In this document: one piece after another, positions 42,947-64,000 of the stretch
How positions within the stretch are numbered: the first letter of the stretch is position 1
Layout: every line of letters begins with the position of its first letter
DNA from: Thermoplasmata archaeon
Lineage (GTDB): Archaea; Thermoplasmatota; Thermoplasmata; Lutacidiplasmatales; UBA184
Length of the DNA: 64,000 nucleotides
Direction of reading: 5' to 3'
NCBI GenBank assembly: GCA_022750375.1
Contig: JAKIVU010000005.1
Location: forward strand, 4,288-68,287
Notes under the pieces: model-generated
What the model was told of the DNA's origin: nothing
Database searches by the model: none
Seen by the model: the letters and a program-made list of their open reading frames with translations, nothing else
Made by a program: the position numbers and the translations under genes

Positions 42947-43053
42947 CCCGGCTTAGCTCAGTGGTAGAGCGGGGGACTGTAGGCGAGACTGCCGGAGCTC
43001 CGGCGGCCCCCGTGGAGATCCTCAGGTCGCCTGTTCGAGTCAGGCAGCCGGGA
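42947..43053 (+). tRNA. tRNA-Tyr (GUA) with a 35-nt intron at the canonical 37/38 position (intron 42983-43017)
   Basis: Exons fold into a cloverleaf. Acceptor CCCGGCU/AGCCGGG with the archaeal Tyr C1-G72 pair, D-arm GCUC-AGUGGUA-GAGC, anticodon stem GGGGA/UCCUC with CU-GUA-G, T-arm GCCUG-UUCGAGU-CAGGC, discriminator A. Confidence 0.85.
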
Positions 43054-49433: not shown

Positions 49434-51206
49434 ATGGCAGGATCGGTCGCACCCCAACCCGAGGGCTCGGAGCCGGACGTGCCCGAGCCCGAGGAGATCC
49501 CCGCGGCGCGCAAGCGCAGTTCCTCCTCGGCGTGGCTCCGCCTCGGCGCCTCCATGCGCAAGGGGTCGTCCGACCCCCGCCCCGTCAAGCTCGCCCGACT
49601 CGGCGTCTCGGGCCAGGGCAGTCAGGGGGAGATCACCCCGATCCCTCCGCTCAACGACCCCGGTCTGAAGGAGCTCGATCTGGCCCCGATCCGTCCCGGT
49701 GTCTCGTTCATCCGGATCACGTACCACAACACGCGGAACGAGTACCTCTACGAGGTCATCGAGCCCCCGCTCTCCCCGATCGAGAAGGACCTGACCGAAC
49801 GGCTCCGGATCGTGCTCATCGACGACTTCCAGCCGCTCACCGAGATCGACCCCGAGTCGAAGCGTCGGGAGCTGCGTCGGATGGTCGACCACAAGCTCCA
49901 GGAGTGGGAGCTCGGCCCGGGCCCGACCACCAAGGGCCGGATCCTCTACCACCTCGAACGGGACTTCATCGGCTACGGGATCGTCGACGTCCCGATGACC
50001 GATACCGAGGTCGAGGACATCTCGTGCGACGGGGTCGGCATTCCCCTGTTCATCTACCACCGGAAGTACGGCTCGATCCGCTCGAACATGAAGTTCCACG
50101 ACTCGAAGGAGCTCGACGACTACGTCGTCTGGCTCGCCCAGCGGTCGGGGAAGCACATCTCCGTCGCGAGCCCGATCCTGGACGCGACCGTCCCGGACGG
50201 CTCCCGTCTCCAGGCGACGCTCGGAACCCACGTGACGAAGCGCGGCAGCTCGTTCACGATCCGCAGGTTCCGCGACAATCCGTTCACGCCGGTCGACCTG
50301 CTCAAGTTCAAGACGATGAGTCCGGAGATGATGGCGTATCTCTGGATCTCGATCGAGAACGGCCAGTCGATGATGGTCTGCGGCGGCACGGCGAGCGGCA
50401 AGACCACGACCCTCAACGCGACCCTCCTGTTCATCCCGCCGCAGATGAAGATCGTCTCGATCGAGGATACCCGCGAGCTCAACCTGCCGCACGAGAACTG
50501 GGTGCCGTCCCTTACGCGCGCCGGGTTCGGCGCGAAGAACCTCACGAGCGGGAAGGCCCCCGGCGAGATCGACATGTTCGACCTGCTGGCGGCGGCGCTC
50601 CGTCAGCGCCCCCAGTACCTGATGGTCGGAGAGGTGCGGGGCGCGGAGGCGTTCATCGTCTTCCAGGCGATGGCGACGGGGAAGACCTGCTACACCACGT
50701 TCCACGCGGAGAGCGTCAGCGCGATGGTCCACCGGATGGAGAACCCGCCGATCTCGCTGCCGCGCTCGCTCGTCTCGGCGCTGAACCTCGTGCTCCTCCA
50801 GCGGCAGGTGAAGGTCGGGACGAAGATGACCCGGCGCGTCCAGTCGCTCACCGAGATCGTCGGTCTCGACCCCGAGACGAACGAACTGATCACGAACTCC
50901 GTCTACTCGTGGAACCCCGCGGACGACACGTTCCTCTACAGCGGCCACTCGTACGTCTACGAGCGGGTCGCGATGATGAAGAACCTCTCGATGAAGGAGA
51001 TGGAGCGCGAGGTCCGCAACCGCGCAGAGATGATGGAGTACCTCGTCTTCCGTGACGCGCAGGCGACCCGCCTGAAGCCGTTCACGCACCGCGACGTCGG
51101 CCAGCTGGTCGCCTTCTACTACAAGGAGCCGGAACGGGCGCTCTCCGAAGCCCGCGCCGAGCTCGCGAAGGCGAAATCGGCGGCGCCGGCCCCCGCGGCG
51201 CGATAA
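49434..51206 (+). CDS. type II/IV secretion-family ATPase (FlaI/PilB/TadA-like), copy 2
   Basis: 590 aa. Walker A VCGGTASGKTTTLNA, IVSIEDTRELNL, LMVGEVRGAE and TCYTTFHA. Clearly paralogous to 45803-47458 along the whole core. Confidence 0.9.
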   Translation: MAGSVAPQPEGSEPDVPEPEEIPAARKRSSSSAWLRLGASMRKGSSDPRPVKLARLGVSGQGSQGEITPIPPLNDPGLKELDLAPIRPGVSFIRITYHNTRNEYLYEVIEPPLSPIEKDLTERLRIVLIDDFQPLTEIDPESKRRELRRMVDHKLQEWELGPGPTTKGRILYHLERDFIGYGIVDVPMTDTEVEDISCDGVGIPLFIYHRKYGSIRSNMKFHDSKELDDYVVWLAQRSGKHISVASPILDATVPDGSRLQATLGTHVTKRGSSFTIRRFRDNPFTPVDLLKFKTMSPEMMAYLWISIENGQSMMVCGGTASGKTTTLNATLLFIPPQMKIVSIEDTRELNLPHENWVPSLTRAGFGAKNLTSGKAPGEIDMFDLLAAALRQRPQYLMVGEVRGAEAFIVFQAMATGKTCYTTFHAESVSAMVHRMENPPISLPRSLVSALNLVLLQRQVKVGTKMTRRVQSLTEIVGLDPETNELITNSVYSWNPADDTFLYSGHSYVYERVAMMKNLSMKEMEREVRNRAEMMEYLVFRDAQATRLKPFTHRDVGQLVAFYYKEPERALSEARAELAKAKSAAPAPAAR

Positions 51207-51238
51207 GCGTATTCCCGCCGGCGCCTCGGACGCCCCCG

Positions 51239-52111
51239 ATGGACCGTCCGTTCGCCCGCCTCCCGACCGGTCGCGGCCGCACGGTCACGCTCTGGCACGA
51301 GGACGCGGTCGAGGGCATGGCCGGCCGGCTCGGACGGCGGCGCGCGGACGTGGTCGTCACGAGTCCCCCGTACAATCTCGGCGTGCCGTACCGCTCCTAC
51401 GCCGACTCGCGGCCGCGCGCGCAGTACCTCGCGTGGCTCGGGTCGGTCGCCGCCGCGGTCGACCGGGTCCTCGCCCGGAACGGTTCGTTCTTCCTGAACA
51501 TCGGCGGACGGCCGAAGGACCCGTGGCTTCCGTGGGACGTCGCGCGGGAGGTCGGCCGGCGTTTCGTGCTCCAGAATGTCGTCCACTGGGTCAAGTCGAT
51601 CGCGATCGACCGGGGGTCCGCGGGCCGCGCCGCCGCGCTCGAGGGAGACCTCGCGCTCGGCCACTACAAGCCGCTCGTTTCGGACCGGTACCTCCACGGG
51701 GCGCACGAGTACGTCTTTCAGTTCACCCGGCGGGGGGACGTCCGGCTCGACCGCCTGGCGATCGGCGTACCGTACCAGGACAAGTCGAACGTCGACCGGT
51801 GGCAGCGTGCCGGAACGGACAAGCGCTGCCGAGGGAACACGTGGTTCCTCCCGTACTCCACGATCCGCGAGCGCGCGCGAGACCGTCCCCATCCCGCGAC
51901 GTTCCCCCCGGAGCTCCCGGAGTGGTGCCTGCGACTCCACGGTCTCGGACGGGTCCGTCTCGCCGTGGACCCGTTCGTCGGGATCGGCGCCTCCGCGGTC
52001 GCGGCGGTGCGCTGCGGGGTGGATTTCGTCGGATTCGAACTGGACGCCGAGTACCTGCGGGTCGCGGCGACGCGCGTGCGGGCGGAGCGGCGGCCCGGGC
52101 GGCCGGCCTAG
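51239..52111 (+). CDS. DNA methyltransferase, N4/N6 (beta-class, SPPY motif IV before motif I)
   Basis: 290 aa. VVVTSPPYNLG (motif IV) near the N-terminus, HPATFPPELPEWC, and DPFVGIGASAVAA (motif I) near the C-terminus. Confidence 0.85.
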   Translation: MDRPFARLPTGRGRTVTLWHEDAVEGMAGRLGRRRADVVVTSPPYNLGVPYRSYADSRPRAQYLAWLGSVAAAVDRVLARNGSFFLNIGGRPKDPWLPWDVAREVGRRFVLQNVVHWVKSIAIDRGSAGRAAALEGDLALGHYKPLVSDRYLHGAHEYVFQFTRRGDVRLDRLAIGVPYQDKSNVDRWQRAGTDKRCRGNTWFLPYSTIRERARDRPHPATFPPELPEWCLRLHGLGRVRLAVDPFVGIGASAVAAVRCGVDFVGFELDAEYLRVAATRVRAERRPGRPA

Positions 52112-52533
52112 CCCTTCTCGTCGTCCCCGGTCGTCGGGGTCGACCACTCGCGCATCGGGGTCCGCTTGACGCCCGCGGCGCTCGCGAAGGCGTTCCGAGT
52201 CCCTTCTTTCGCCCGGTGACCGGCGCTCACGAAGGCGTCCCGCGTCGCGGCTCCGGCCTTGGAGGCGCTCGAGCCGATGGCGATGCCGGCGTTCGCGAAA
52301 TGCTGGGGGATCCGGCGCACCTCTTCGTCCATTCGCTTGCCGAGGGTCGCGAAATCGTCCTGGATGTCGAGCGCGAGGTACTTCGCTTCTTTGGCGGTGG
52401 TGTGACCGAGCTTCTCGATCTTCCGGTCGAGGTCAGTGAATTCGCTCGCGAAATCGCGGCCGATCCCTCCGGCGGCCCGCCGCATTTCGCTCAGGTGCTG
52501 GCGGAACTGGGCTTCATCTCGACTGTCGGACAC
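52108..52533 (-). CDS. small helical protein, unknown function (last gene of the AAA+/vWA operon; start uncertain)
   Basis: The GTG at 52533 gives a 141-aa Ala/Lys/Glu-rich helical protein. The upstream part of the 184-aa track ORF overlaps the vWA gene tail. Confidence 0.45.
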   Translation of the reverse strand: MSDSRDEAQFRQHLSEMRRAAGGIGRDFASEFTDLDRKIEKLGHTTAKEAKYLALDIQDDFATLGKRMDEEVRRIPQHFANAGIAIGSSASKAGAATRDAFVSAGHRAKEGTRNAFASAAGVKRTPMREWSTPTTGDDEKG

Positions 52534-52600
52534 GGTCTCTCCCGCCGGTCGAACCGGAGGTTCGGAAGATAAAGGTTGATGGGCACTGGCAACGGGGCCG

Positions 52601-54007
52601 CTATCCGCCCATCCGGCGGTCGGCGCGCCGGCGGCGCGCGGCGCCCGGACGCGACGCAGCACGAGGCGCCGGCGGGGGCGCAGCGGTAGCGGAGACCCGG
52701 CGCTCCGTCTCGGTCCCGTGCGCCCACCGGACGAGCAGCTCGACCCCGAGGCGGACGGGGTCGGTCACGACCAGCTCTCCGCCCATCGTGCGCGCGACGG
52801 TCCGGGCGGCTGTCTCGTATTCGGGATGGTCGCTTTTCAAGAGAATCACGGTCGACTTGAGCGGAGAGACCGTCGCGAGCTCCCGGGCGCGGTCGAGGGC
52901 GTGCTCCATCGCGACGTCGAGCTGCCCGGAGCGTACGCGCCCATCGCCGGCGGTGTACGCCTCCGGGAGTCCGTCGGTGATCAGGTAGAATTCGCGGCGC
53001 GTGGCGCGAGAGGCCCGCAGGAGGAGGTGGGCGGCCCGCAACGCCTCCGCGGTGTTCGTGAACGCCCCCGCCTTGCACTCCCACAGTTCCACGAGGTCGA
53101 GCACCTGGACCTCGTTGTCGAAAGCGAAGACGTCGACCGTGGCGTCCGGGTACCGGCGGCGGACCGCCACGTAGAGCGCGAGGAGCGCCTTCTTCGCGGC
53201 GTCGAGCTTTCCGTTCTCGCTCATGCTCCCCGACCGGTCGAAGGCGAGGACGATGTGCACCCGCTCGCTCGTCACCTCGCGGTAGACGTAGCTCGTGGCT
53301 TCGTCGATGTGCCGCTGGCCGGCGAGCCGGGCCGCGAGCAGCGAGCTCGGCAGGTCGAGCCGTGCGACCTCTTCGGCGCGCCGCAGGCGGGCTTTCTCGT
53401 AGACCCCGGTCGACCCTCCGCCCCGGAGGGAGAGGCGGATATCCCCGGGGAGGCGGCGGCTCTCCTCCTCCAGCAAGAGGCGGGCGAACCGTTCGACCAG
53501 CCCGTACGTGACGGCGAGTTCCCCTCCGCGCTCGGCGACGAAGCCGCGTTCCTTCAGCTCGCGTTCGAGTCGGTGCTCCTCGCCCGCGCGTACCCGGGCT
53601 TCCGTGTCGGCCGCCGCGCGCCGCTCCGCCTCGCGCCGTTCTTCCTCGAGCAGTCGGCGCTGGGTCTCGGCCGCCCGCCGCTTCTCCTCGGCGGCGCGTT
53701 CGAGCTCCCGTTCCTGGGTGCGGAGCGACCCGGAGACGGTCTGCGATAGTTCGTCCTTCTGGGGTCCGGAGAGCCGCGCCAGCGCGTCGCCGAGTTCGGA
53801 CGCTCCGAGCGCCCGCCCGTCGGGCGACGGCACCGCGATCGATACCCGTCGCTCCTTGCGGGGGGGAGGGGTCGGGCCCCGGCGCCCGAAGAGACCCTTG
53901 AGCCACGCGATCAAACGCGCGAAAGCGGCGCGGAGGCGGGCGCCGATCCCGGGTTTCGGTGGAGGCTGATTCCAGGAGGCGGCCGGGAGCAGCAGCGCCG
54001 CGCTCAC
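52601..54007 (-). CDS. vWA domain protein with charged coiled-coil N-region (coding frame probably extends upstream to about 54394, see findings)
   Basis: 468 aa from the first canonical start (GTG 54007). MIDAS VLAFDRSGSMSENGKL, with downstream ITDGLPE. Long Glu/Arg coiled-coil segment. Confidence 0.8.
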   Translation of the reverse strand: MSAALLLPAASWNQPPPKPGIGARLRAAFARLIAWLKGLFGRRGPTPPPRKERRVSIAVPSPDGRALGASELGDALARLSGPQKDELSQTVSGSLRTQERELERAAEEKRRAAETQRRLLEEERREAERRAAADTEARVRAGEEHRLERELKERGFVAERGGELAVTYGLVERFARLLLEEESRRLPGDIRLSLRGGGSTGVYEKARLRRAEEVARLDLPSSLLAARLAGQRHIDEATSYVYREVTSERVHIVLAFDRSGSMSENGKLDAAKKALLALYVAVRRRYPDATVDVFAFDNEVQVLDLVELWECKAGAFTNTAEALRAAHLLLRASRATRREFYLITDGLPEAYTAGDGRVRSGQLDVAMEHALDRARELATVSPLKSTVILLKSDHPEYETAARTVARTMGGELVVTDPVRLGVELLVRWAHGTETERRVSATAAPPPAPRAASRPGAARRRRADRRMGG

Positions 54008-54392
54008 TTCACCGAGGAGATTGTCCGGAAGGCGCGACCAGTCGATCGTGCGCGCCGCCCGGAGCCGCCCCTCGAGCTCGGCGATCCGCTGGGCGACCTC
54101 TTCGTCGCTCCTCCGCGCGACCCGGTCGAGCTCGACGCGACGGCGGTCGTAGTCTTCCTGGAGGCGAGTGGTCCGTCGGGCAGCTTGACGACGGAGACGT
54201 TCCCGGAGCCGGGCGAGACGGTCCGCGAGCTCCCGGTCCCGGGTCGCGGTATCCCGCAGGAGCCGACGGGCCCCGTCGATCCCCTCCTCGGCGAGGGCGC
54301 GGATCAGGGCGGCCCGCTCGACCGCGTCGAGGAGGTCGTCGGAGATGACGTCGTCCGCGAACTCGGCGCAGTCGGGCAGCTCGATCGCGTCG

Positions 54393-55928
54393 CTAGAGGG
54401 GGGCGTCGTCGTCGTCCTCGTCCTTGCACGAGAAGAGGGAGTACTCCTCGAGGAGTCGGAAGATGTTGGCGGCGACGTCCATCGGTGGCACGGCAGTCGC
54501 CGGATGCTCCCGTTCGGTCACGTACCGGACGAACGTCCGGAACTGGGGAAACACGGTGGTGTCCGAGGCGGCCTGGGTCCGCAGCTCGGCATCATCCTTG
54601 AGCCGGCGTCCCTCGCCGACCAGCGCTTGCGCGTCGGCCGAGCTCTCCTTCAGTACTCCCCGGTAGAACCGGCACCAGTAGACGCCGGCGCTCCGCTTGA
54701 GCGACGGGTCGAGGTACTGGTCGATGAACTCCGCGACGCGCTTCTCGTTCTGGCGGAACGAATCGCCGCTGCGCGCGCGGATCCGCCCGCGCATCGCGTG
54801 CACAAGACCCGCCTTCAGGTCCGCGCTCGTCGGGACCGGGTGGTCCGCGAGCACCCCGATCGCGGCGGTTCGAGCCGCGACATCGAGCAGCGTGCGGTTC
54901 GACCCGACCTCCCCGATGTCCGGATTGTCCTCGCTCATCCGCAGGCGCCACGCTTCGATGACGCGGACCCCGGCATCAGTGAGCACCTCTGGAACGTACT
55001 GGGTCGGGTCGTCGCTCCGTCCGAGGGCGACGATCCGACGGTTGTCCGCGTGGCGGTCGTTGTACCCGATGTGCAGGCTGGTGAGACGGTCGGACAGCGG
55101 GTCGTTGATGTTGTCGAGGTCCGAAAGGTTGGACGTGCAGACCGCGACGAACAGTCCCGGGAAACTCTCGCGCGACTTGGAGGGTGTTACGGTCCCCTCT
55201 TGCAGCGCCTGGAGCAACACGTTCTGGGTGCCCAGCGGCAGCTTTCCGATCTCGTCGACCAAGAGGAAGCCGCGATTCGCCTGCAGCAGTTTTCCAGGCT
55301 CGAAGACGAGCGGGCTCATCGGGTCGCCGACCTCTTCGAGTTTTCGAAGGTTGATGTTGCCGGTCAAGTGGTCGGGGAAGACCTCCGAACTGCCCTGCAG
55401 TCGGGCGTATCCGTACCCTTCCCGGAGCAGCACGTAGCTGGCGGGGACCTTCGCCGGGTCAACCGACGCAGGGTCGAACCGGGTCGGGTCGCCGTTCGGT
55501 GCGAATCGTCGCTCGCAGATCGGGCACGCCGGGAACCGGGCGGCGACTGCGGGGTCGACCATGCTGAGCGGATGGTCCTGCACCGGGCAACCGTCGACCG
55601 TCCAGACTCCCTTGGGGAAGAGGTTCCACAGGTCCTTCGCGAGACTCGTCTTGCCAGCGCCGGACGGCCCGAAGAAGAGCACATGCGCACCCGAGACGAG
55701 GGCCGTGAGGAGGTCCTCGTAGGTAGGTTCGGGAAGGACCGTTCCGGGGAACAACGCTCGGACCGCCTCGTTCCGGTCGAGGCCCTTTGCGCGCAACCCC
55801 TCGAGCGTCCGAAGGATCTCCCCCCGGAACCGTTCGGCCGGGCTCGCCACCGTCACGCGGGAGGATTTCAGTTGGGCGGCCGTGGCGTGAGTTCCGGGAG
55901 CCGGCGCCGGGAGGGCCGAATCGACCAC
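54393..55928 (-). CDS. AAA+ ATPase (Mg-chelatase/Lon/sigma54-interaction-like helix-2-insert clade) with an inserted Cys-cluster
   Basis: 511 aa. Walker A FFGPSGAGKTSLA, Walker B plus the following helix GFLLVDEIGKLPLGTQNVLLQALQEGTVTP, sensor-1 VAVCTSN, a CPVQDH...CPICERRF insertion, and an acidic C-terminus DEDDDDAPL. Confidence 0.8.
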   Translation of the reverse strand: MVDSALPAPAPGTHATAAQLKSSRVTVASPAERFRGEILRTLEGLRAKGLDRNEAVRALFPGTVLPEPTYEDLLTALVSGAHVLFFGPSGAGKTSLAKDLWNLFPKGVWTVDGCPVQDHPLSMVDPAVAARFPACPICERRFAPNGDPTRFDPASVDPAKVPASYVLLREGYGYARLQGSSEVFPDHLTGNINLRKLEEVGDPMSPLVFEPGKLLQANRGFLLVDEIGKLPLGTQNVLLQALQEGTVTPSKSRESFPGLFVAVCTSNLSDLDNINDPLSDRLTSLHIGYNDRHADNRRIVALGRSDDPTQYVPEVLTDAGVRVIEAWRLRMSEDNPDIGEVGSNRTLLDVAARTAAIGVLADHPVPTSADLKAGLVHAMRGRIRARSGDSFRQNEKRVAEFIDQYLDPSLKRSAGVYWCRFYRGVLKESSADAQALVGEGRRLKDDAELRTQAASDTTVFPQFRTFVRYVTEREHPATAVPPMDVAANIFRLLEEYSLFSCKDEDDDDAPL

Positions 55929-56079
55929 GTCGCGCCGAACTGGGTTTGGGTTATTACCTTGCTCAGGGCGCGCGAGGACGGGAGGGGAGGAAGGCCCGAA
56001 TCCTTGCGGGAGATTTCCTCGTCAGAAATCCGCTCGACATGGTTAAGTAGGGCACCCCGCTCCGCGGCCTCGCGAAACG

Positions 56080-56799
56080 ATGGCCGACAAGGAAGGCCCG
56101 GCGAAGAAGCCGGCGATGGCCCGGACCGTCAAGGACAAGTGGCGGTCGAAGCACTGGTTCAAGGTCCGCGCCCCCGGTCTCTTCCAGCACGTGGAGCTCG
56201 GCGAGACGGTCGCGACCGAACCCGAGCAGGTGATCGGCCGCACGCTCGAGACCACGCTTCCTGAACTGTCGGGCGGCGGAGATTCCGGGAAAGCCCACAT
56301 CAAGCTGCGGTTCCGCATCGAGCGCCTCGGCGGCGATGGGGTCGCCGAAGCCCGGTTCATCGGCCACGAGCTGACCTCCGACTACGTCCGCCGGCTCGCG
56401 CGCCGGAAGCGTTCCAAGATCGATCTGTCCCTCACCGTGACCACGAAGGACGGGGTCCAGATCATCCTGAAGCCGGTGGCGGTCGGCGAGCAACGACTCC
56501 AGACCCGGCTCCGCGCCGAACTACGCCACAAGATGGTGTCGATCCTCCTCGAGGAGGCCGCGAAGCGGTCGTCTCCCGAGTTCGTCCGGGAGATGCTCCA
56601 GGGGGAGCTCTCGAAAGTCCTCGCCCATGGGCTGAAGACACTCTATCCGCTGAAGAAGATCGAGATCCGGCGGTCGGAAGTGCTCGGCACGATCGCGGAC
56701 GAGCTCCCGTTGCCCGAACCGACCGCCCTTCCCGAGGTGCCGACGGCCCCCGACGCGGTGGCCCCGGTCGCCGACGGCGGGGACGCCACGGTAGCGTAG
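56080..56799 (+). CDS. rps3ae: 30S ribosomal protein S3Ae (eS1)
   Basis: 239 aa. VKDKWRSKHWFKVRAP, GRTLETTL and SDYVRRLARRKRSKID blocks. Confidence 0.9.
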   Translation: MADKEGPAKKPAMARTVKDKWRSKHWFKVRAPGLFQHVELGETVATEPEQVIGRTLETTLPELSGGGDSGKAHIKLRFRIERLGGDGVAEARFIGHELTSDYVRRLARRKRSKIDLSLTVTTKDGVQIILKPVAVGEQRLQTRLRAELRHKMVSILLEEAAKRSSPEFVREMLQGELSKVLAHGLKTLYPLKKIEIRRSEVLGTIADELPLPEPTALPEVPTAPDAVAPVADGGDATVA

Positions 56800-56833: not shown

Positions 56834-56935
56834 GTCGGAGTGGCTCAGCCCGGTAGAGCACGGGACTCATAGCGGGACGCGCTACGCGTCCCGGGAGAGA
56901 TCCTGGGGTCGGGGGTTCAAATCCCCCCTCCGACA
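56834..56935 (+). tRNA. tRNA(CAU), elongator Met or Ile2, with a 28-nt intron at 37/38 (intron 56872-56899)
   Basis: Acceptor GUCGGAG/CUCCGAC, D-arm GCUC-AGCCCGGUA-GAGC, anticodon stem CGGGA/UCCUG with CU-CAU-A, T-arm GGGGG-UUCAAAU-CCCCC, discriminator A. The intron contains the hairpin GGGACGCG-CUA-CGCGUCCC. Confidence 0.85.
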
Positions 56936-57116
56936 TCTTTCGACGATTTCTCGCTGAGTTACGACGACACTTGAATATTCGCGCGTGGCGGATTTGAACA
57001 TTTCAGCCGCACGTCCTCCGCCCTCTCGACTTTGAGGTGGTCTCTGCCCCAGTTCGGGAGGATACGCATATGGACCACGGGAGTGATTTCCAGGAGCGGG
57101 CTCGCCCGGTTCAGGA

Positions 57117-57470
57117 TCAGCGGTCGTCGAATCCGTACTTGTGGAGTTGCTCGGGTATTGGCAGGTCCGAAGGCTGGTTGAAATCGATCCCTGTGATCTC
57201 TTTCATCTGTTGCTTGAACCAGAGATCGAACGGGTCGGTTGACAACGCCCACGCTCGGAAGGACTTGGGAATGTCCGGGGCCTCTGCATAGTAGACCATC
57301 AGGACCCCATTCGGTGTGGTGAGCAGGAACTGAGTGTCCTTCTCGAACCCGAACCGCTTGGAGGAGGCGTCGTACTCTGCATATCTCGGGCCGGCGAGCT
57401 GGTTAAGGAGGGTTCTCAGCGCCTCCCTCTTACCGGGGAGCACAGGAAAAACCGTCGCGTACTGGGCCAC
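57117..57470 (-). CDS. small conserved protein of unknown function, paralog 1
   Basis: 117 aa, GTG start. More than half identical by eye to 57607-57966 (FPVLPGKREALR.LL..LAGPRYAEYDA...DPFDLWFK.Q.K.ITGID.NQPS). Confidence 0.7.
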   Translation of the reverse strand: MAQYATVFPVLPGKREALRTLLNQLAGPRYAEYDASSKRFGFEKDTQFLLTTPNGVLMVYYAEAPDIPKSFRAWALSTDPFDLWFKQQMKEITGIDFNQPSDLPIPEQLHKYGFDDR

Positions 57471-57606
57471 ACCGATGTTCAGAGACCGAGCGTAGTTAAA
57501 CGTTCCGAGAATCGGTGGCGACAGCGGTTCTCTCAGTGCCCGGAGAGGGCTTTTCGGGTTCCCACGAAAGTGATGCGGGACCCTCGGGAAGGGTCGCCCT
57601 GTTGGA

Positions 57607-57966
57607 TCATCGATCGTCGAAGCGGTACTTGTGGATCTGCTCGGGCCATGGCCCTTCGAAATTCGAGGGTTGGTTGTAATCGATCCCCGTGATGTCCTTC
57701 AACTGTTCCTTGAACCAAAGGTCGAACGGGTCGTTGCACGTCGCCCAGTCTCTCCAAGCCTTCGGAATGTCCGCGCCTTCCCCATAGTAGATGATGAGGA
57801 CCCCCTGCGGGGTGGTTTGCAAGAACCAGGTGTCCCGTTCGAATCCCCATCGCCGCGAGGCCGCATCGTACTCGGCGTATCTTGGGCCGGCCAGAGCCTT
57901 TAGCAGGTTCCGCAGCGCCTCCCTCTTGCCGGGAAGCACCGGGAATACCATCGCCCATTGGGGCAT
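57607..57966 (-). CDS. small conserved protein of unknown function, paralog 2
   Basis: 119 aa, ATG start. Tandem duplicate of 57117-57470, including its upstream TATA region. Confidence 0.7.
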   Translation of the reverse strand: MPQWAMVFPVLPGKREALRNLLKALAGPRYAEYDAASRRWGFERDTWFLQTTPQGVLIIYYGEGADIPKAWRDWATCNDPFDLWFKEQLKDITGIDYNQPSNFEGPWPEQIHKYRFDDR

Positions 57967-58087
57967 ATCGAGGTTCAGGAGGGTGCGTTAGTTAAGAGTT
58001 CCGAGATTCCGGGGCAGTTTCGACCGGCGCTCCGCCGGATTTCCGACCTACCGATCGACTTCGAGGTTTCCCGGTTGGTGGCGACAC

Positions 58088-61000
58088 TCACGCCGGCGGC
58101 CGCGCCTTCCGGGCTCGCACGCGTTCGATGTCCCGGCCGGCCCGGAGTTGGGTGAACAGTTCCAGGGCCTCGTCGAACGCACGGCCGGCGCTCCTCGAAT
58201 CCTTTGACTGTTCGTAGGCTACGCCGAGCGTGTACAAGGTCAGGGCCAGCTCGTACGGCCACCCGGCCTGTTTCCACCAGGTCACCGCCTCTTCGAGCGC
58301 GCGGATCGCATCCTGTGTCTGTCCTCGATGGGTCTCCCACGCGGCCCTAGCCCGCAGGGCAAGGCCTCGATTCGCCGGCACCGGGATTCGATCCGCGATC
58401 CGGTCCAGTCGTTCACGGAAGAGGGACGCGCGACGCTCGGCCTCCGCGCGGTCCGGAAGACTCAGGGAGACGGTGACGGCACGAGCGAGTGGCAGTGCCC
58501 AGAGCGTCGCTAGGATAGCGGGATATCCCCTCCGGTCGCAACGGACGATGCCGGACTCGAGGGCTGCCAAAGCGCCGGTGGGGTCTCCTCGCTCTTCTTG
58601 GAGCCACCCGTCCAAATAGCTCTCGTAGACGGCCTGCGCGGTGTCGGGACCCATCCGGAGCAACGTCCTCGTCGAGTCGAGCAGGGCCGCGGCCTGGTCC
58701 AGATTTCCCGCCATCAGCTCGAGATGGGCCCGGACCTCGGAGTTTAGAACGTTCGGGATCCCAACCTCCTGGTGAAATTGCGCTCCCGCTCGGGCACCGG
58801 CGGCCGCGCGGTCGACCTCCCCGGTCAACAACAAAACAATCGGCAACTGGGTCCCCTCGAATCCCATCTCGCTTCCGCGATCTCGAATTCGTTGGCACCA
58901 TCGAATTCCCTCGTTTATCGTACCGATCCCACCGACGGTATCGCCGTCCATCCACACCATTCCCCAAACATACTGCCATAGAACCGAGGGACCATCCACC
59001 AGGTTCTGCCGGCGCGCCAGCTCCAAGGCCGCGATGAGATTGCGGCGAGCTGTCTCCCGGCCTTCGGGGGGTTCGAGCCAAGCCAAGTCAACGAGCGCCT
59101 TCGCCTCAAGGTCGGATGCATGGGTGGCGCGCGCGACCGAAAGTGCTTGCTCTAGGAGCGCCCGCGCCGAGGGAAGTTGAGGGAGCTCCATTTCTGCGGC
59201 CACAGCCCCGAGGTGAAGGCAAAGGTCCGCATGCAACCGGCTCTCAGGCTCGCTTTCGACGAGCGCCCGGGCCTGGAGCATGAGGGCAAGGCCCTCCTCG
59301 AACGACCGTAACATCCATGCACGAATGGTGCCCGCCGCGAGCAGATTCGACCCGGCCGAGATGCGCTCGCCGAGCTCTTCGTACAGTCGAGCGGCCTCTT
59401 CCAGTCGGCTCGCGGCCGAGGAAAATTGCGCTAGAAACGGTGCTTCGTGACCCAGTGACTCCAGCAGGCGGGCGCGTTCCAGATTTTGCTCACGGGAGCG
59501 GCCCCGGCCCGACCCTTGGAGCTCGTTCATCAATTCGAGAGCGGTCTCATAGTATCGGATTGCCTCCTCGTGGGCGAAGACCGCAGCAGCTTGGTGCCCC
59601 GCGATGGCCGAGTACTGGAGAGCTTTCGGACGATCGTTTCCCCGACAGAAATGTTCACTGAGTTGGGCGGCGATCGCGTCCGGGTTACCGGCGTGCTTCT
59701 CCTCCAGTAGTCGGGCGACCTTCAGATGAAGCCGCTGGCGACGGGCGAGCGAAAACTCCCGGTAAAGGACCGCGTGGGTTTCGTCGTCGGCGAACCGGTA
59801 CATCGGGTGGCCCGGTTCATACTCCCTCTCCCGGAGCAGTCGGGCTCGAAGAAGTTCCTCGACGGAACGGATCAGCGACTCCTCCTCCATTCCGCTCAGG
59901 TGGAGGAGGAGGTCGAAGTCGATTTCCCCCCGGAGGACCGAGGCGGTGGAGAGAACGGCACGGGATTCCTCGCTAACCCGGCCGACCCGACGCAAAATGA
60001 GCTCCCGCATCGACGAAGGGATCCCGACGTCCGTGGTGAGCTGCACGGTCCAACCTTCGGGGCGGCGAACCAGTTGCTGTTCCTCGACCATGGACCTTAG
60101 GAGCTCCTCGGCGAACAGCGGATTCCCCCCGGTTCGCTCATGGACGATGCCCACTAGGCCTGGGAGCGGGGCCTCTCCGCTGAGAATCGCGGAGACGAGG
60201 CGTTGGGACGGCTCCGCGGACATCCGTTTGACCGGAACGTCCTGGAGCAGGTGTTCCTTTCTCAGTTCGGAAAGCATGGCACGAAGATGATCACTTTCCG
60301 TGACGTCAGAATCGCGATGGCTGAGAATCAACAGCAGACGAAGGGACGGTACCTGTCGCGCCAGGTACTCGATCAATCGGAGCGAGGCGGCGTCGGCCCA
60401 CTGGATATCGTCAAGGAGGAAGAGCAACGGACCTTCCTGGGAAAGGTTCCGGACAAACTGCGTAACACCCTCAAAAAACGCCAGCCGGGCCTGTTCGGCT
60501 TCGAGCGCCGCCGGTGAGGGACTCGGGCCCACGCGGTCGACCAGCTCCGGGACCAGCTTCACCACCGCAGCCTGACACTTGGTGCACAGCTTGTACAGCA
60601 ATGGGTCGGGCGCGTCCCGGACAAAACCCCGGATCGCTTCGGCCCACGGACCGTACGGGATGTCGACCTGGTCTTGAATTCCCCGCCCGTGGAGGGTGCG
60701 GAACCCCTTGGCGCTCCCGCGTCGAATTGTCTCTTCGGCGAGGCGCGTCTTCCCGATCCCGGGCTCCCCGGAGAGTGCGATCACTTGGCCACGGCCAGCG
60801 GCAGCTTCTTTGAGGGCTCCGTTTAGGGTCTCTACCTCCGCCTCGCGGTCCGTCCAAGGAGTGATCCGGGCGGCGGAGGGTCCGTGCCAGGGAAGGTCGA
60901 CGCTGTAGACGGAAATCGGGGTGTCGATGTTCTTCAGGAATGCGTGCTCGAGCTGGATGCACGAGTAGGGCACTTTGTTCCGAACCTGGTCGAACACGGG

Positions 61001-61402
61001 ACCGCTGATACAAATCCCCGAGGTCTCCGCGAGGGGCTCGATGCGCGCAGCGATGTTCACCGCATCTCCGAGGAGGTCGCCCGCTTGGTCGACGACGTCG
61101 CCGAGGTGGATCCCGATCCGCAGCTCCACTCGATCGGATGCGGAACGCTCGTTGTGTCCGAGGAGCGTGCGCTGCACGTCGATTGCGCATTCTAGGGCCT
61201 GTAGCGCACTGGGGAATTCAACGAGGAACCCGTCACCCATTCGGTTGACCTCTCGGCCACCATGAGACTGGAAGACCGGACGCACGAGCGCCCGCTGGAC
61301 TCCCAGAAGATGGATGGCCAGGGGCTCGTCCCGCTGGGCGAGAGCCGAGTAGCCCACCATATCCGTGAACATGATGGCGGCGAGACGACGGGTCGGAGCC
61401 AC
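58088..61402 (-). CDS. class III adenylate/guanylate cyclase domain - STAND/AAA ATPase - TPR repeat protein
   Basis: 1104 aa. N-terminal cyclase core (AAIMFTDMVGYSAL...MGDGFLVEF...IGIHLGDV...GDAVNIAARIE). P-loop LSGEPGIGKTRLAEE and Walker B LFLLDDIQWAD. C-terminal about 550 aa of TPR-like helical repeats. Confidence 0.85.
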   Translation of the reverse strand: MAPTRRLAAIMFTDMVGYSALAQRDEPLAIHLLGVQRALVRPVFQSHGGREVNRMGDGFLVEFPSALQALECAIDVQRTLLGHNERSASDRVELRIGIHLGDVVDQAGDLLGDAVNIAARIEPLAETSGICISGPVFDQVRNKVPYSCIQLEHAFLKNIDTPISVYSVDLPWHGPSAARITPWTDREAEVETLNGALKEAAAGRGQVIALSGEPGIGKTRLAEETIRRGSAKGFRTLHGRGIQDQVDIPYGPWAEAIRGFVRDAPDPLLYKLCTKCQAAVVKLVPELVDRVGPSPSPAALEAEQARLAFFEGVTQFVRNLSQEGPLLFLLDDIQWADAASLRLIEYLARQVPSLRLLLILSHRDSDVTESDHLRAMLSELRKEHLLQDVPVKRMSAEPSQRLVSAILSGEAPLPGLVGIVHERTGGNPLFAEELLRSMVEEQQLVRRPEGWTVQLTTDVGIPSSMRELILRRVGRVSEESRAVLSTASVLRGEIDFDLLLHLSGMEEESLIRSVEELLRARLLREREYEPGHPMYRFADDETHAVLYREFSLARRQRLHLKVARLLEEKHAGNPDAIAAQLSEHFCRGNDRPKALQYSAIAGHQAAAVFAHEEAIRYYETALELMNELQGSGRGRSREQNLERARLLESLGHEAPFLAQFSSAASRLEEAARLYEELGERISAGSNLLAAGTIRAWMLRSFEEGLALMLQARALVESEPESRLHADLCLHLGAVAAEMELPQLPSARALLEQALSVARATHASDLEAKALVDLAWLEPPEGRETARRNLIAALELARRQNLVDGPSVLWQYVWGMVWMDGDTVGGIGTINEGIRWCQRIRDRGSEMGFEGTQLPIVLLLTGEVDRAAAGARAGAQFHQEVGIPNVLNSEVRAHLELMAGNLDQAAALLDSTRTLLRMGPDTAQAVYESYLDGWLQEERGDPTGALAALESGIVRCDRRGYPAILATLWALPLARAVTVSLSLPDRAEAERRASLFRERLDRIADRIPVPANRGLALRARAAWETHRGQTQDAIRALEEAVTWWKQAGWPYELALTLYTLGVAYEQSKDSRSAGRAFDEALELFTQLRAGRDIERVRARKARPPA

Positions 61403-61574
61403 GGCTCGAAATCCGCTCCCGTTAGATTAAGTCCCGGTCCTGAAACAGGTGTGAGTCAACTCAGTGGGCAAAGCTCACCTCGCGCCCAGTAAGCCCAACC
61501 GTATCTGGTAGTCTTGCGATCGCGATTTCTTGATGTCGTGTAGTCCCGTATTCGCGCTTTCTTGCGGACCCCAT

Positions 61575-61635
61575 GTCGGGGACATGAAGAATTCAGTAGT
61601 GTCCCCCTCCGACACCCTTAGTCGATTCCGGGAAG
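61575..61635 (+). repeat. tRNA(CAU) 3'-half-like structured repeat, copy A
   Basis: GTCGGGGACA-TGAAGAATTCAGTAG-TGTCCCCCTCCGACA followed by CCCTTAGTCGATTCC. Shares the hairpin and CCTCCGACA core with copies B and C and with the tRNA 3' end. Confidence 0.75.
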
Positions 61636-61682
61636 AGCTATGGTGTGCCGGACTTTCGTCTCTCCCGAGCGGTGCTTCCCCC

Positions 61683-62231
61683 ATGAACGAACACCCCGGC
61701 ACCGAACCGAGGATAGTCATCCGTCGAATTGTGGAATCGGATAGGAATGCGTTACGAGAATTGCGCCTTCGGGCCCTAACTACGGACCCAATGTCCTTTG
61801 CATCCACGTTCGACCGGGAATCCAGAGACGACGGCGCGAAATGGACCGATTGGGCGCACCGTGGAGCTGTTTCCCCCGAAATGGCGGTCCTCGTGGCCGA
61901 GCAGATCAACGGCCCGCTGATCGGGATGGTGGGCGCGTTGTCGGAGGAAGATGTCACTCACATCTACGGGATGTGGGTCGAGCCAGGCCACCGGAACCTC
62001 GGCCTGGGAGGGAAACTACTCGACGCGATTCTCGCATGGGTGGAAACGTCTCACCCATCGTCCGAAGTTCGTCTGGGAGTTGTACCTTCCTCCGATTCAG
62101 CGGTGCGCCTTTACCGCAGCCGGGGGTTCGTTCCGAGCGGGAAGGTCGAACCCCTTCCGCACACCCCAGGAGTGGTGTGGCATGAGATGGCCCTACTACG
62201 CAAGGGATCGAATCCGTCGTCAGAAGGGTGA
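61683..62231 (+). CDS. GNAT family N-acetyltransferase
   Basis: The ATG at 61683 gives a 182-aa protein. IRRIVESDRNALRELRL and the acetyl-CoA motif VEPGHRNLGLGGKLLDA. The upstream part of the track ORF merely reads through repeat A. Confidence 0.8.
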   Translation: MNEHPGTEPRIVIRRIVESDRNALRELRLRALTTDPMSFASTFDRESRDDGAKWTDWAHRGAVSPEMAVLVAEQINGPLIGMVGALSEEDVTHIYGMWVEPGHRNLGLGGKLLDAILAWVETSHPSSEVRLGVVPSSDSAVRLYRSRGFVPSGKVEPLPHTPGVVWHEMALLRKGSNPSSEG

Positions 62232-62313
62232 TGCTCGTCCGTCCGTTTGATCGAAGCTCGATCAAGGACCAGGACTTCCCGTCGGCCGGGTGCCTGCGCT
62301 GGTCGACCGGAAC

Positions 62314-62394
62314 GTACGGGAACTGAAGAATTCAGTAGTGTCCCCCCCGACATCTCTCACCGATTTATCGCCGGGAGTCGACGAAGTTCGACCA
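62314..62394 (+). repeat. tRNA(CAU) 3'-half-like structured repeat, copy B
   Basis: GTACGGGAAC-TGAAGAATTCAGTAG-TGTCCCCCCCGACATCTCTCACCGATTTATCGCCGGGAGTCGACGAAGTTCGACCA. 42 of 48 positions identical to copy C from CCGACA onward (hand alignment). Confidence 0.75.
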
Positions 62395-62531
62395 ACATGA
62401 TGGCGGCAAGTCCGCGGGCGGAGGTCCCGCCTCGAGAATGGTCTTTCTTGGATTGAGCCCGGGTCACTGGAGGCGCCGGATTCGACTGAGGGGGCCTTTC
62501 CTGGAGATGATGGGCGGCTAAGGGACCAGGG

Positions 62532-62789
62532 TTACCGGCCGTAGATTCGCGACCGGTGATCCACGCGTTCGACCAGAATGGTCTGTTCTGCGTGGGAGAG
62601 CACGGCCAGGAGGCGATAGCTGCCGATACGAAGCTTGAACTCGTCCGAGCTCGCCAATCTCGTGAAATAGTGGGTCGGGGCCAAGGCGGCTGCCTCGAGA
62701 CGAGTTACAACCCTTCGGGCTACCGTTCGATCGAGTTTGTGCAGATCGCGAACAGCGGTGTCCGACCACTGGATCGACCACGCCGTCAG
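62532..62789 (-). CDS. relE: RelE/ParE-family type II toxin (no canonical start codon; CTG overlapping the antitoxin stop proposed)
   Basis: Hand translation of a frame not listed in the track: (L)TAWSIQWSDTAVRDLHKLDRTVARRVVTRLEAAALAPTHYFTRLASSDEFKLRIGSYRLLAVLSHAEQTILVERVDHRSRIYGR, with TAA at 62532-62534. This is the classic RelE pattern (KLRIGSYRLL...V.HRS.IY). Confidence 0.7.
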   Translation of the reverse strand: MTAWSIQWSDTAVRDLHKLDRTVARRVVTRLEAAALAPTHYFTRLASSDEFKLRIGSYRLLAVLSHAEQTILVERVDHRSRIYGR

Positions 62790-63022
62790 AGGCCCAACCG
62801 CTTCTTGACCTGCTCGTGCGCCGTTACCCGGCCCGACCGGATGTCCAGTCTGGCGTTCAGCAACCCCATCCGAAACGCATCGCTGTATGTTCCTTCATCG
62901 TCTCCCTGCGGGACTAGGGCCAGCAGCTTGTTCAGGAGCTCATCGTAGGTCTCGCGCGGCGAGCTTTTCAATGCGGCCAGCCGCTCGCGGGTGGTCGGTG
63001 TAACTTGGATAGTCGTGATCAT
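62786..63022 (-). CDS. antitoxin partner of the RelE-like toxin (small N-terminal DNA-binding-type domain)
   Basis: 78-80 aa (ATG 63022 or TTG 63028). MITTIQVTPTTRERLAALK..., located immediately upstream of and overlapping the toxin frame. Confidence 0.65.
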   Translation of the reverse strand: MITTIQVTPTTRERLAALKSSPRETYDELLNKLLALVPQGDDEGTYSDAFRMGLLNARLDIRSGRVTAHEQVKKRLGL

Positions 63023-63048
63023 TGGCAATGGGATAGCGTATGGTCACC

Positions 63049-63056
63049 ATATAGAT
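63049..63056 (-). promoter_or_regulatory. TATA-like box for the toxin-antitoxin operon
   Basis: Minus-strand ATCTATAT lies 27-34 nt upstream of the ATG at 63022. It is embedded in the partial palindrome CATATAG-ATTA-CTATG. Confidence 0.4.
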
Positions 63057-63118
63057 TACTATGTTGGAATCGGGGAAAGGGTCGGGGCCGGAAAAACCGA
63101 CGGGACGAAATCCTTCCG

Positions 63119-63200
63119 GTCGGGGATATGAAGAATTCAGTAGTGTCCCCCTCCGACATCTTTCGCCGATTTATCGCCGAAAAACGACGAAGTTCGACCA
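63119..63200 (+). repeat. tRNA(CAU) 3'-half-like structured repeat, copy C
   Basis: ATCCTTCCGGTCGGGGATA-TGAAGAATTCAGTAG-TGTCCCCCTCCGACATCTTTCGCCGATTTATCGCCGAAAAACGACGAAGTTCGACCA. 38 of 50 positions identical to the tRNA 3' end plus flank (56929-56978) by hand alignment. Confidence 0.8.
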
Positions 63201-63332
63201 TTTGTCTGGAGGGGATCTGAACCCGTCAACGGTCGTTCCAGAAAGGGCTAGTTGATCGACCGTAGGGGGTGCGTCCTAGGTCGGGTGCCGCCCTGAGGCG
63301 GGGATTCGGGAACCTCCGCCCCCCTTCAGGGT

Positions 63333-63857
63333 TCAACCCTTGTTCTTCGCAGCCCATTCCTTGGCTGCATTAGCATCCCATTCCGGGGCGGCCTGTCGCG
63401 TGGTAACGTTGATCCTATTGTAGAGATTCTGAATGGCGATCCCGAGCACGAGGAACGCTAGCTCCCGTTCCTGGAAGTGACGCGCCGCCTCATCCCAGAC
63501 AGTGTCAGGCACGGGGTCCGAACGGTCGCTTAAGCGCGTTTCCGCCTCTGCGAGGGCGAGAGCCGCACGTTCCGGGGCCGTGAATTGTGGCGATTCCCTC
63601 CACGCCGAGACGGCGAGGAGCCGCTCGTCGGTCTCCCCAAGCTGTTTCAGTTGCCAACAACTGGCAGCGAGGCAGTTCGCGCAACCATTCAGCTGACTGG
63701 CCCGGAGCATGGCCAAAGCGAGCGCCCGCGCGGGCGAGCCTTTCAGCTGGCTCAGTAGCTGCCCGAGTCCCTGCAACGGGGCCATGGCCTCAGGAATGAT
63801 CATCGCGGGGTTCTTCAGTCGGCTTTTGGGCGTCACTGTGGACACTGCCATTTCCAT
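63333..63857 (-). CDS. carboxymuconolactone decarboxylase (AhpD-like) family protein
   Basis: Start at MEMAVSTV (ATG 63857). LRASQLNGCANCLAASC (CxxC) and SAWRESPQFTAPERAALALAEA are typical of the CMD/AhpD family. Confidence 0.75.
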   Translation of the reverse strand: MEMAVSTVTPKSRLKNPAMIIPEAMAPLQGLGQLLSQLKGSPARALALAMLRASQLNGCANCLAASCWQLKQLGETDERLLAVSAWRESPQFTAPERAALALAEAETRLSDRSDPVPDTVWDEAARHFQERELAFLVLGIAIQNLYNRINVTTRQAAPEWDANAAKEWAAKNKG

Positions 63858-64000
63858 TTGCTCGCTGCGCGATCGCTCGCGCGCGTCACTGCATAACTCT
63901 TTTGATATATACGTTACTGCTCTCAATCGTGGATATGACTCAAAGAGTCTTTCAGCCGATAGCACGTTGATTTCCGGTGAGTACGCGAGGCGGGGGATGC

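Follow-up and report, generated by a model that had tools for sequence, protein, structure and literature searches.

Three hairpin-forming repeats that follow an intron-containing tRNA(CAU) gene in a Thermoplasmata genome are, judged by alignment, copies of the terminal part of that tRNA gene. They most probably (we put the probability at roughly 0.8) represent the att junctions of small integrative elements that lack an integrase, are non-autonomous and have accreted in tandem, and that resemble CIMEs, tycheposon remnants and the att sites of SNJ2. What looked like an attractive "tRNA-mimic minihelix" would on this reading be a recombination junction. The window analysed here is the whole stretch of 64,000 nucleotides (C13:4288-68287) from a genome bin of 0.93 Mb with 67% G+C.

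Homology of the repeats to the tRNA(CAU) gene

Repeat A (61575-61614, plus strand) consists of a hairpin arm (P, 61575-61602) and a 12-nt core, CCCCCTCCGACA (61603-61614). Its elements are, in order, GTCGG (61575-61579), GGACA, the 15-nt loop TGAAGAATTCAGTAG, TGTCC, a CCCT bulge, CCGAC (61609-61613) and an A at 61614, and its P' arm is truncated or diverged past ~61627. Repeat C (63119-63158, plus strand) has the same architecture, with a hairpin arm at 63119-63146, a core at 63147-63158 and a GGATA/TGTCC stem that includes one G.T pair. Repeat B (62314-62394, plus strand) is a degenerate copy. Its hairpin-core portion (62314-62352) has lost the outer stem and is missing one base before CCGAC, its core is shorter by one T (CCCCCCCGACA), and its 42-nt P' arm stops abruptly at GTTCGACCA. 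The base-by-base description of copies A and C and of the degenerate copy B in the original prediction was correct. A 22-nt core, GAAGAATTCAGTAGTGTCCCCC, is present in three exact copies on the plus strand of the window, with none expected by chance (100 shuffles). Beyond the window, repeat D (C13:72742-72900) and a diverged repeat E (C13:74703-74860) are located on the same strand.

The intact, intron-containing tRNA(CAU) gene is located at 56834-56935 on the plus strand, directly after rps3ae (Pfam Ribosomal_S3Ae). It was identified by its match to Rfam RF00005 (57 bits, E 7e-12) and was missed by ARAGORN. The last 12 nt of the gene (56924-56935) are identical to the att core and recur at 61603 and 63147. 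Exon 2 of the tRNA and ~75 nt of its trailer form a collinear alignment with copies A-D, in which the variable loop and the 5' strand of the T-stem, GGTCGGGGG, align with GTCGGGG of the repeat, and TCCCCCCTCCGACA matches TGTCCCCCTCCGACA. The trailer (56936-57010, plus strand), which would be the P' arm and left end of the first cassette, reads TCTTTCGACGATTTCTCGC...GGCGGATTTGAAC and is homologous to the sequence 3' of copies B, C and D. The repeat counterpart of the T-loop is enlarged by 12 nt, with 19 nt between the T-stem-equivalent strands compared with 7 in the tRNA.

This alignment bears on the claim that the outer stem GTCGG/CCGAC reproduces the first base pairs of the tRNA acceptor stem. 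The 3' half of the claim holds, as CCGAC(A) corresponds by homology to the acceptor 3' strand with its discriminator, but the 5' half does not, as the counterpart of GTCGG in the alignment is the variable loop and T-stem 5' strand. GTCGG can pair with CCGAC because the GUCGG of the tRNA variable loop and T-stem happens to match the first five bases of the tRNA 5' end (GUCGGAG), and the lack of variation in the hairpin's 3' strand follows from its being the tRNA 3' end. For annotation, this suggests that hairpin repeats found near intron-containing tRNA genes should first be compared with the tRNA 3' end.

Conservation of sequence and of fold

The predicted minimum-energy RNA folds of repeats A, C and B have energies of -14.8 kcal/mol (z -2.5), -12.9 kcal/mol (z -2.1) and -9.3 kcal/mol (z -1.6), respectively, and folding with DNA parameters gave a similar picture (z -3.2 to -1.5). 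The hairpin drawn in the original prediction was reproduced for A and C, with a predicted stability that exceeds the shuffles modestly and supports it marginally; the predicted fold of B lacks the outer stem and retains the inner part only. The site taken as a whole is no more stable than shuffled sequences (z -0.6 and -1.5).

To characterise pairing across copies, an alignment of 47 distinct repeat copies from related Thermoplasmata genomes was used. Pairs were counted in the originally proposed stems and in a small TGAA/TTCA inner helix, and the null distribution was obtained by shuffling the 3' letters within each column. Pairing was possible in 86.0% of cells compared with 85.5% in the column shuffles, and 78 of the 500 shuffles reached the observed value. 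Double changes were seen in three pairs only, substitutions in the 5' arm have no compensating partner in any copy, and the third outer pair (8-42) is unpaired in 15 of the 47 copies, with a 5' base that varies between C, T, G and A opposite a constant G. Per-column conservation in the same alignment is 83%, and the loop is conserved as well as the stems. No Rfam family (RF00005 included) was matched at E<=1 around copies A-C or around copy D. As read from this alignment, the sequence of the repeat is clearly conserved and its fold is not. The compensatory changes proposed as a check of the hairpin did not emerge: pairing stays at shuffle level, with no covariation and with stem positions that mutate freely, an outcome that the original prediction itself had named as speaking against it.

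Two further candidates in and around the repeat were considered and rejected. One was a small ORF running through the repeat (MKNSVVSPSDIFRRF..., 30 codons, with its ATG in the loop and in frame with the GNAT gene after copy A); its codon-position entropies are equal (0.71, 0.70 and 0.67), and behind the tRNA this frame is likewise open in the absence of a start codon. The other was a minus-strand tRNA in the P' arm, where GGGGATTTGAACCC resembles a reversed T-arm; its stems fail to pair when checked by hand and the Rfam search of it was blank.

Cassettes, junctions and a candidate mechanism

The site is present in 16 of 150 species-level genomes of the genus, compared with 0 for a reversed-pattern control. 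Every public genome bearing the motif is a soil or peat MAG of the Thermoplasmata. The tRNA was found in all eight of the genomes without the site that were checked, and genomes without the site have the same tRNA followed by a trailer that differs and is unrelated in each. Because the trailer differs in every genome that lacks the motif, the P' arm belongs to the element and not to the host. All sites are downstream of the same tRNA and in its orientation (at least 13 genomes and 13 metagenome contigs). In related arrays the sites are spaced 0.7-5 kb apart, number up to 8 or more and always have the orientation of the tRNA, and the same cassettes occur in different orders among genomes. GC3 is 0.63-0.78 in the array of this genome (0.74-0.78 for the genes of cassette 1) compared with 0.86-0.95 for the core genes upstream of the tRNA.

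Cassette 1 (57011-61574), between the tRNA trailer and repeat A, encodes two DUF6176-like paralogues (57117-57470 and 57607-57966, both on the minus strand) and a class III cyclase-AAA_16-TPR protein (58088-61402, minus strand), all annotated with Pfam; cyclase-TPR genes are the commonest cargo of related arrays. The cargo of cassette 2 is a GNAT acetyltransferase gene (61683-62231, plus strand; Pfam Acetyltransf_1, E 2.9e-14). A ParE/RelE toxin and a DUF7557 antitoxin follow on the minus strand (62532-63028; Pfam ParE_toxin E 5.9e-11, DUF7557 E 7.5e-8). This ~0.72-kb ParE/DUF7557 cassette is 81-90% identical in L062, L064 and L067, where it has different neighbours each time. The first gene of cassette 4 is a CMD (AhpD-like) gene (63333-63965, minus strand; Pfam), and the part of the cassette past the window edge, which reaches repeat D, encodes ArsR, AHSA1 and a YVTN surface protein. 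DUF1801, SnoaL and a RelE-like pair are located between repeats D and E, and the array runs on to the end of the contig. For this large genus of Thermoplasmata from soil and peat, which is uncultivated, the arrays would represent a defined hotspot at which small packets of accessory and defence-like genes are exchanged, including genes with metal and redox functions, toxin-antitoxin pairs and GNAT and cyclase-STAND/TPR genes.

The remnant of a lost cyclase cassette (62394-62500, minus strand; direct repeat D3), homologous to 61368-61470, consists of the first ~10 codons and the upstream (promoter) region of a paralogue joined to the cut P' arm of repeat B. Homology to the toxin-antitoxin cassettes of other genomes starts only near 62520. 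Together with the lost P' arm of repeat A, the cut repeat B and the cyclase remnant indicate, at the level of sequence, that the array of the window is decaying by deletion.

Comparison of empty and occupied sites shows how the repeats relate to the cassettes. In G003, the flank CCTCGGGAATAATTATAAGTGCC comes immediately after the tRNA. In L055, a P' arm takes that position, and the same flank (CTTAGGGAATAATTATAAGTGCC...) is found 2.9 kb downstream, after the hairpin and CCCCCTCCGACA. The 2.9-kb insert contains cargo genes only and is bounded by a core repeat identical to the 3' end of the intact tRNA. By their sequences, G003 and L055 provide an attB, attL and attR set in which the 12-nt core is duplicated, with a complete hairpin in attR at the right end of a single insertion. 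A second empty/occupied case, which illustrates accretion, is given by L075, whose first cassette after the tRNA sits ~22 kb distal in G001.

A single cassette separates L037 from L050, and the parentage of the junction changes between the hairpin and the ~20 nt that follow the core. The L037 junction is the same as L050 site 298 through the entire hairpin, including two diagnostic variants adjacent to the core (alignment columns 77 and 81), and the same as L050 site 2557 from ~20 nt past the core. In pairwise comparisons of 55 junctions, hairpin variants track the left flank (5.5 vs 9.3 mismatches) and the 30 nt after ACA track the right flank (13.5 vs 17.5 mismatches). Many junctions keep the hairpin and core exactly to ...CCGACA and nothing further. 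Taken together, the empty/occupied comparisons, the accretion case, the L037/L050 difference and the co-segregation of variants argue for an exchange within the 12-nt core. The suggestion that the repeats are sites recognised by a recombinase fits these data in substance, as the repeats are located exactly at cassette boundaries and the empty site, attL and attR line up across genomes.

The site would have three parts. The P arm, a hairpin of the form GT.GGGGATATGAAGAATTCAGTAGTGT, would be a relic of the T-arm with a loop 12 nt longer than the T-loop; the core (O), CCCCCTCCGACA, is identical to the T-stem 3' strand, the acceptor 3' strand and the discriminator of the tRNA; and the P' arm would be a trailer-like sequence of 0-150 nt. 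Three forms of the P' arm were found: long (~60 nt followed by GGGGATTTGAACCC), short (4-5 nt followed by GGATTTGAACCC) and absent. The long form has CGNCGA repeats phased at 11 bp. A full-length example, the P' arm of the cassette after repeat C (63159-63290, plus strand), contains these phased repeats (TCGCCGA..TCGCCGA..ACGACGA), the motif GGGGATCTGAAC and a small hairpin. No consensus structure was found for 28 P' arms using RNAalifold (-0.73 kcal/mol, 3 pairs). The motif GGGGATNTGAA, which is the reverse complement of the T-loop and stem, forms the 5' arm of the hairpin and recurs where P' ends.

Each cassette would have the layout P' - cargo - hairpin, with the hairpin as the element-side arm of attR/attP. 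The hairpin would move with the left-hand cassette as its right end, and P' would move with the right-hand cassette. Newcomers would enter at the tRNA-proximal end and accrete in tandem, and the tRNA would stay intact and keep its own T-loop because strand exchange would take place inside the 12-nt core. The hairpin sequence and the copies of GGGGATNTGAA in P and P' may serve as double-stranded, arm-type-like binding sites for a recombinase supplied in trans or for an accessory protein. The recombinase would belong to those tyrosine recombinases that act on short cores located at the 3' ends of tRNA genes, and the dyad symmetry kept in the P arm, along with its enlarged loop, may have a role in recombination. 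The unusual traits of these elements are that the units are uniformly small and cargo-only, that their ends are conserved and that the P arm, a relic of the T-arm, has a conserved loop of increased size.

Recombinase searches, rival explanations and known systems

We searched for a linked recombinase in six-frame translations, reading through stops, using PF00589, PF16795 and PF00239 in up to 17 genomes, and none of the three matched inside or beside the arrays. PF00589 had no match inside or beside any array in the 17 genomes, no SSV-type integrase was present, and the small resolvases that were present are unlinked to the arrays. The cassette ORFs encode cargo only, with no integrase within the element, and no integrase remnants were detected in ~60 cassettes from the 17 genomes. 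The sole tyrosine recombinase in the genome of the window is a XerA-like gene on another contig. Elsewhere in the array genomes there are a XerA-like gene and scattered integrases, none of them beside a core sequence. The nearest integrase is a single gene ~10 kb past the last site in G170, the sole case within 15 kb; no att-like sequence was found beside it, and its family is present in 9 of 16 array genomes compared with 80 of 150 genomes overall, showing no enrichment. Pattern scans of IMG/VR for an excised circle, virus, plasmid or integrase-bearing element with P-O-P' returned nothing or chance matches only. No linked recombinase was found and, therefore, the enzyme would either act in trans or be gone.

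Other explanations of the repeats were weighed against these observations. A functional RNA, in which the hairpin would be a tRNA-like minihelix for processing, CCA-tagging or termination, or the 3' end of a small RNA, is very improbable. Copies A and C fold as drawn, their 3' end mimics the acceptor 3' strand with its discriminator A, and some cassettes have a conserved non-coding module (about 300-340 nt) before the hairpin with a consensus fold of -68.6 kcal/mol. However, that module has only three compensatory pairs and a positive covariation term, and the repeat itself has no covariation in 47 copies, no Rfam match, a loop conserved as much as its stems and a 5' "acceptor" strand that is not homologous to an acceptor. 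The orientation of the repeats also follows the tRNA and not the flanking genes, with repeat A located between divergent genes and repeat B between convergent genes, and the predicted hairpin loop is 13-15 nt long, where a T-loop would have 7 nt (TTCRANY). The structural and RNA interpretation of the repeats is not supported by these results, which also speak against a tRNA mimic and against a processing signal for RNase P, tRNase Z or CCA addition. It is scarcely credible that the hairpin instead represents the abutted terminal inverted repeats of neighbouring transposon-like units (right end GGGGATATGAA, left end TTCA...TCCCC), with the boundary in the loop at GAATTC. Units could be drawn with inverted ends, since GGGGATTTGAA, the reverse complement of the tRNA T-loop and stem, recurs at the far end of P', but both halves of the hairpin, including the variants at columns 77 and 81, go with the left cassette (L037/L050 and the pairwise statistics), and the attR of L055 has the complete hairpin at the right end of its single insertion.

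The cassette organisation itself recalls integrons. Their cassettes would be matched here by arrays in which up to 8 or more units, each of 0.7-5 kb, share one orientation, by a site at the 3' end of each unit, by the entry of new cassettes beside an anchor, by ~60 cassettes without integrase remnants and by cargo of the chromosomal-integron type (GNAT, ParE toxin-antitoxin, glyoxalase-like, SnoaL and DUF genes). An integron-like system in the strict sense, in which a dedicated recombinase encoded elsewhere recognises the structure of a folded single-stranded hairpin, as for attC, and the tRNA 3' end acts as attI, is nonetheless improbable. The sequence, loop included, is conserved rather than the structure, there is no covariation, and the complete site is no more stably folded than its shuffled versions (z -0.6 and -1.5); the R''/R' AAC...GTT boxes are absent, as read from the sequence; no IntI-type integrase adjoins the array, whose upstream neighbour is rps3ae; genes are on both strands; and the paper on archaeal integrons (10.1101/2022.02.06.479319) does not mention Thermoplasmata. 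The "attC-like logic" of the original prediction fails on the same evidence. A looser version is a tentative possibility, in which a living integron-like capture system in archaea would insert and excise cargo-only cassettes with a composite site (T-arm-derived hairpin, 12-nt tRNA core and phased-repeat arm) at the tRNA(CAU) 3' end as the equivalent of attI, using a recombinase encoded elsewhere (possibly XerA or an unrecognised enzyme). It is unlikely that the repeats are inert scars, with cassettes gained, lost and shuffled purely by homologous recombination between repeats of 40-190 nt, and with a similarity that reflects descent and gene conversion and not selection by a recombinase. The decay of the window's array (B truncated, the cyclase remnant at 62394-62500, A without its P' arm) and the lack of a linked recombinase would fit this, as would one cassette lineage in which the site (~87%) is not clearly better conserved than the cargo (~81%). 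Exchange between direct repeats of this length could produce the same loss and shuffling of cassettes without a site-specific enzyme, and homologous recombination between repeats may account for some of the shuffling. However, with only 12 nt common to the tRNA and the element, a first insertion beside the tRNA would be hard to achieve by homologous recombination, the 37 nt of hairpin and core are kept across unrelated cassettes and in species whose cargo genes are 15-35% diverged, and many junctions are exact up to ...CCGACA with nothing shared beyond.

The preferred reading, att junctions of integrase-less elements at a tRNA 3' end, can be compared with several known systems. With integrons, including archaeal ones (10.1101/2022.02.06.479319), the arrays share small cargo-only cassettes in the same orientation, a 3'-end site, insertion beside a fixed anchor and similar cargo. 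They differ from them in having no IntI beside the array, a site conserved in sequence and not in structure, no R/L boxes, genes on both strands and a tRNA as anchor instead of attI. Without IntI and without attC boxes or structure, the arrays are not integrons by definition. Still, ~60 cassettes in 17 genomes with conserved ends and never a recombinase raise the question of whether archaea can mobilise cargo-only cassettes in trans, as bacterial integrons do.

In archaea, att sites favour tRNA 3' ends and can reach beyond the gene (PMC8371274), and tRNA fragments are a pervasive by-product of integration (PMC9897764). In the archaeal tRNA-fragment cases (PMC9897764; PMC8371274), the far border of the insert is likewise marked by a partial copy of the tRNA 3' end, but there the insert is typically one virus or plasmid of 9-23 kb with a repeat of 40-50 bp, whereas here a 12-nt core with element-specific arms recurs many times. 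Tycheposons are tandem elements with only partial tRNAs between neighbours (10.1101/2020.12.28.424599), and the tycheposon islands of Prochlorococcus are likewise anchored at tRNAs, with older elements pushed outward and plug-in gain and loss of cargo. Unlike the arrays described here, tycheposons have replication genes and recombinases of the tyrosine or large serine type, and fragmented integrases occur in their islands, none of which was seen here; the partial tRNA here also has a 12-nt insertion in the T-loop.

CIMEs are flanked by att sites and lack an integrase, keeping attL and attR without genes for integration and transfer; they are set in motion by a related autonomous element that inserts next to them, and their accretion has been described (PMC5704250). 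The elements reported here likewise keep attL and attR and have no integration or transfer genes. As in the tandem accretion of streptococcal ICEs and IMEs (PMC5704250), they are arranged in tandem behind the end of a target gene, and a newcomer enters the att site that includes the gene end. CIMEs are usually single decayed bacterial ICEs of many kb, whereas these archaeal arrays contain up to 8 or more units, each 0.7-5 kb long, with conserved ends and without remnants of mobility genes.

By analogy, SNJ2-type recombination appears to be the best mechanistic match. For SNJ2, a haloarchaeal pleolipovirus, the site is a 14-bp core in the 3' end of a tRNA-Met gene, with conserved P and P' arms (PMC5861418). 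Both systems have a target at the 3'-distal part of a tRNA-Met/CAU gene, a very short core (14 bp there, 12 nt here), conserved P and P' arms on the side of the element and a tRNA that is restored by integration. SNJ2 carries IntSNJ2 with Orf2 and Orf3 beside its att site, whereas no tyrosine recombinase, IntSNJ2-like or other, is near any site here. The host there is a haloarchaeon and here a soil Thermoplasmata archaeon, and the P arm here would be a hairpin derived from the T-arm with an enlarged loop.

Base composition at the start of the array, and intron-containing tRNA genes

The genes upstream of the tRNA(CAU) gene (window 49812-56799) have a third-position G+C of 0.86-0.95 and every gene of the cassette array behind it (57117-63965) has values of 0.63-0.78, with the sharp fall located at the tRNA itself. 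This tRNA gene (56834-56935, 102 nt) and a second one (42947-43053, 107 nt) both contain introns and were annotated using Rfam. Both were overlooked by ARAGORN in bacterial mode and only 16 tRNAs were called across the whole bin, therefore intron-bearing tRNAs are probably under-counted. In the related genome G030, two contigs (C4:41533-41637 and C5:18029-18133) each hold a copy of the end of tRNA(CAU) together with its trailer, and the flanking sequences of the two copies are identical. The pair reflects either a true duplication or assembly redundancy.

A cyclase remnant and a toxin gene within the array

Homology to 61368-61470 identifies 62394-62500 as what remains of a second cyclase gene. 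It retains the first ~10 codons and the upstream region, and is joined directly to the truncated P' arm (the trailer-like sequence after the core) of repeat B. This vestige shows that the array has lost an entire cassette through deletion. A ParE/RelE toxin frame is located on the minus strand at 62532-62790 (Pfam ParE_toxin, E = 5.9e-11), where it overlaps the end of the antitoxin gene. No ATG, GTG or TTG start was found in this frame upstream of residue ~34.

Integrase homologues and a solitary repeat

A 320-aa tyrosine integrase (G170:C6:495807-496766) belongs to a widespread family: of 150 genomes in the genus, 80 carry a homologue. Members of this family are frequently located at contig ends or contain in-frame stops. 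A lone copy of the hairpin and core was observed in G007 (C2:1317565, locus L041), approximately 950 kb from the tRNA(CAU) array of that genome. Its 8-bp stem (GGGGATTT/AAATCCCC) is perfect, and the copy may be the product of a secondary insertion or rearrangement.

Conserved sequences flanking the hairpin and core

The P' arm at 63159-63200 contains three direct CGNCGA repeats (TCGCCGA, TCGCCGA and ACGACGA), also seen in 28 other P' arms in our alignment (A2). They are spaced 11 bp apart, i.e., one helical turn, and enclose a 15-nt palindrome (TTTCTCG-C-CGAGAAA); this arrangement resembles a binding array for a DNA-binding protein. On the other side, at least 11 cassettes whose cargo is unrelated share a conserved module of ~300-340 nt directly 5' of the hairpin. 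One copy is located just past the window end (L017:1200-1499, corresponding to contig C13:72441-72740) and the others are in 10 cassettes in L037, L055, L059-L062, and L066-L068. The copies share 73-83% pairwise identity with frame-breaking indels among them, and the module is apparently non-coding. The consensus has a predicted fold of -68.6 kcal/mol, with compensatory change at three pairs only, and the module may represent either a cis region at the element end or a non-coding RNA.
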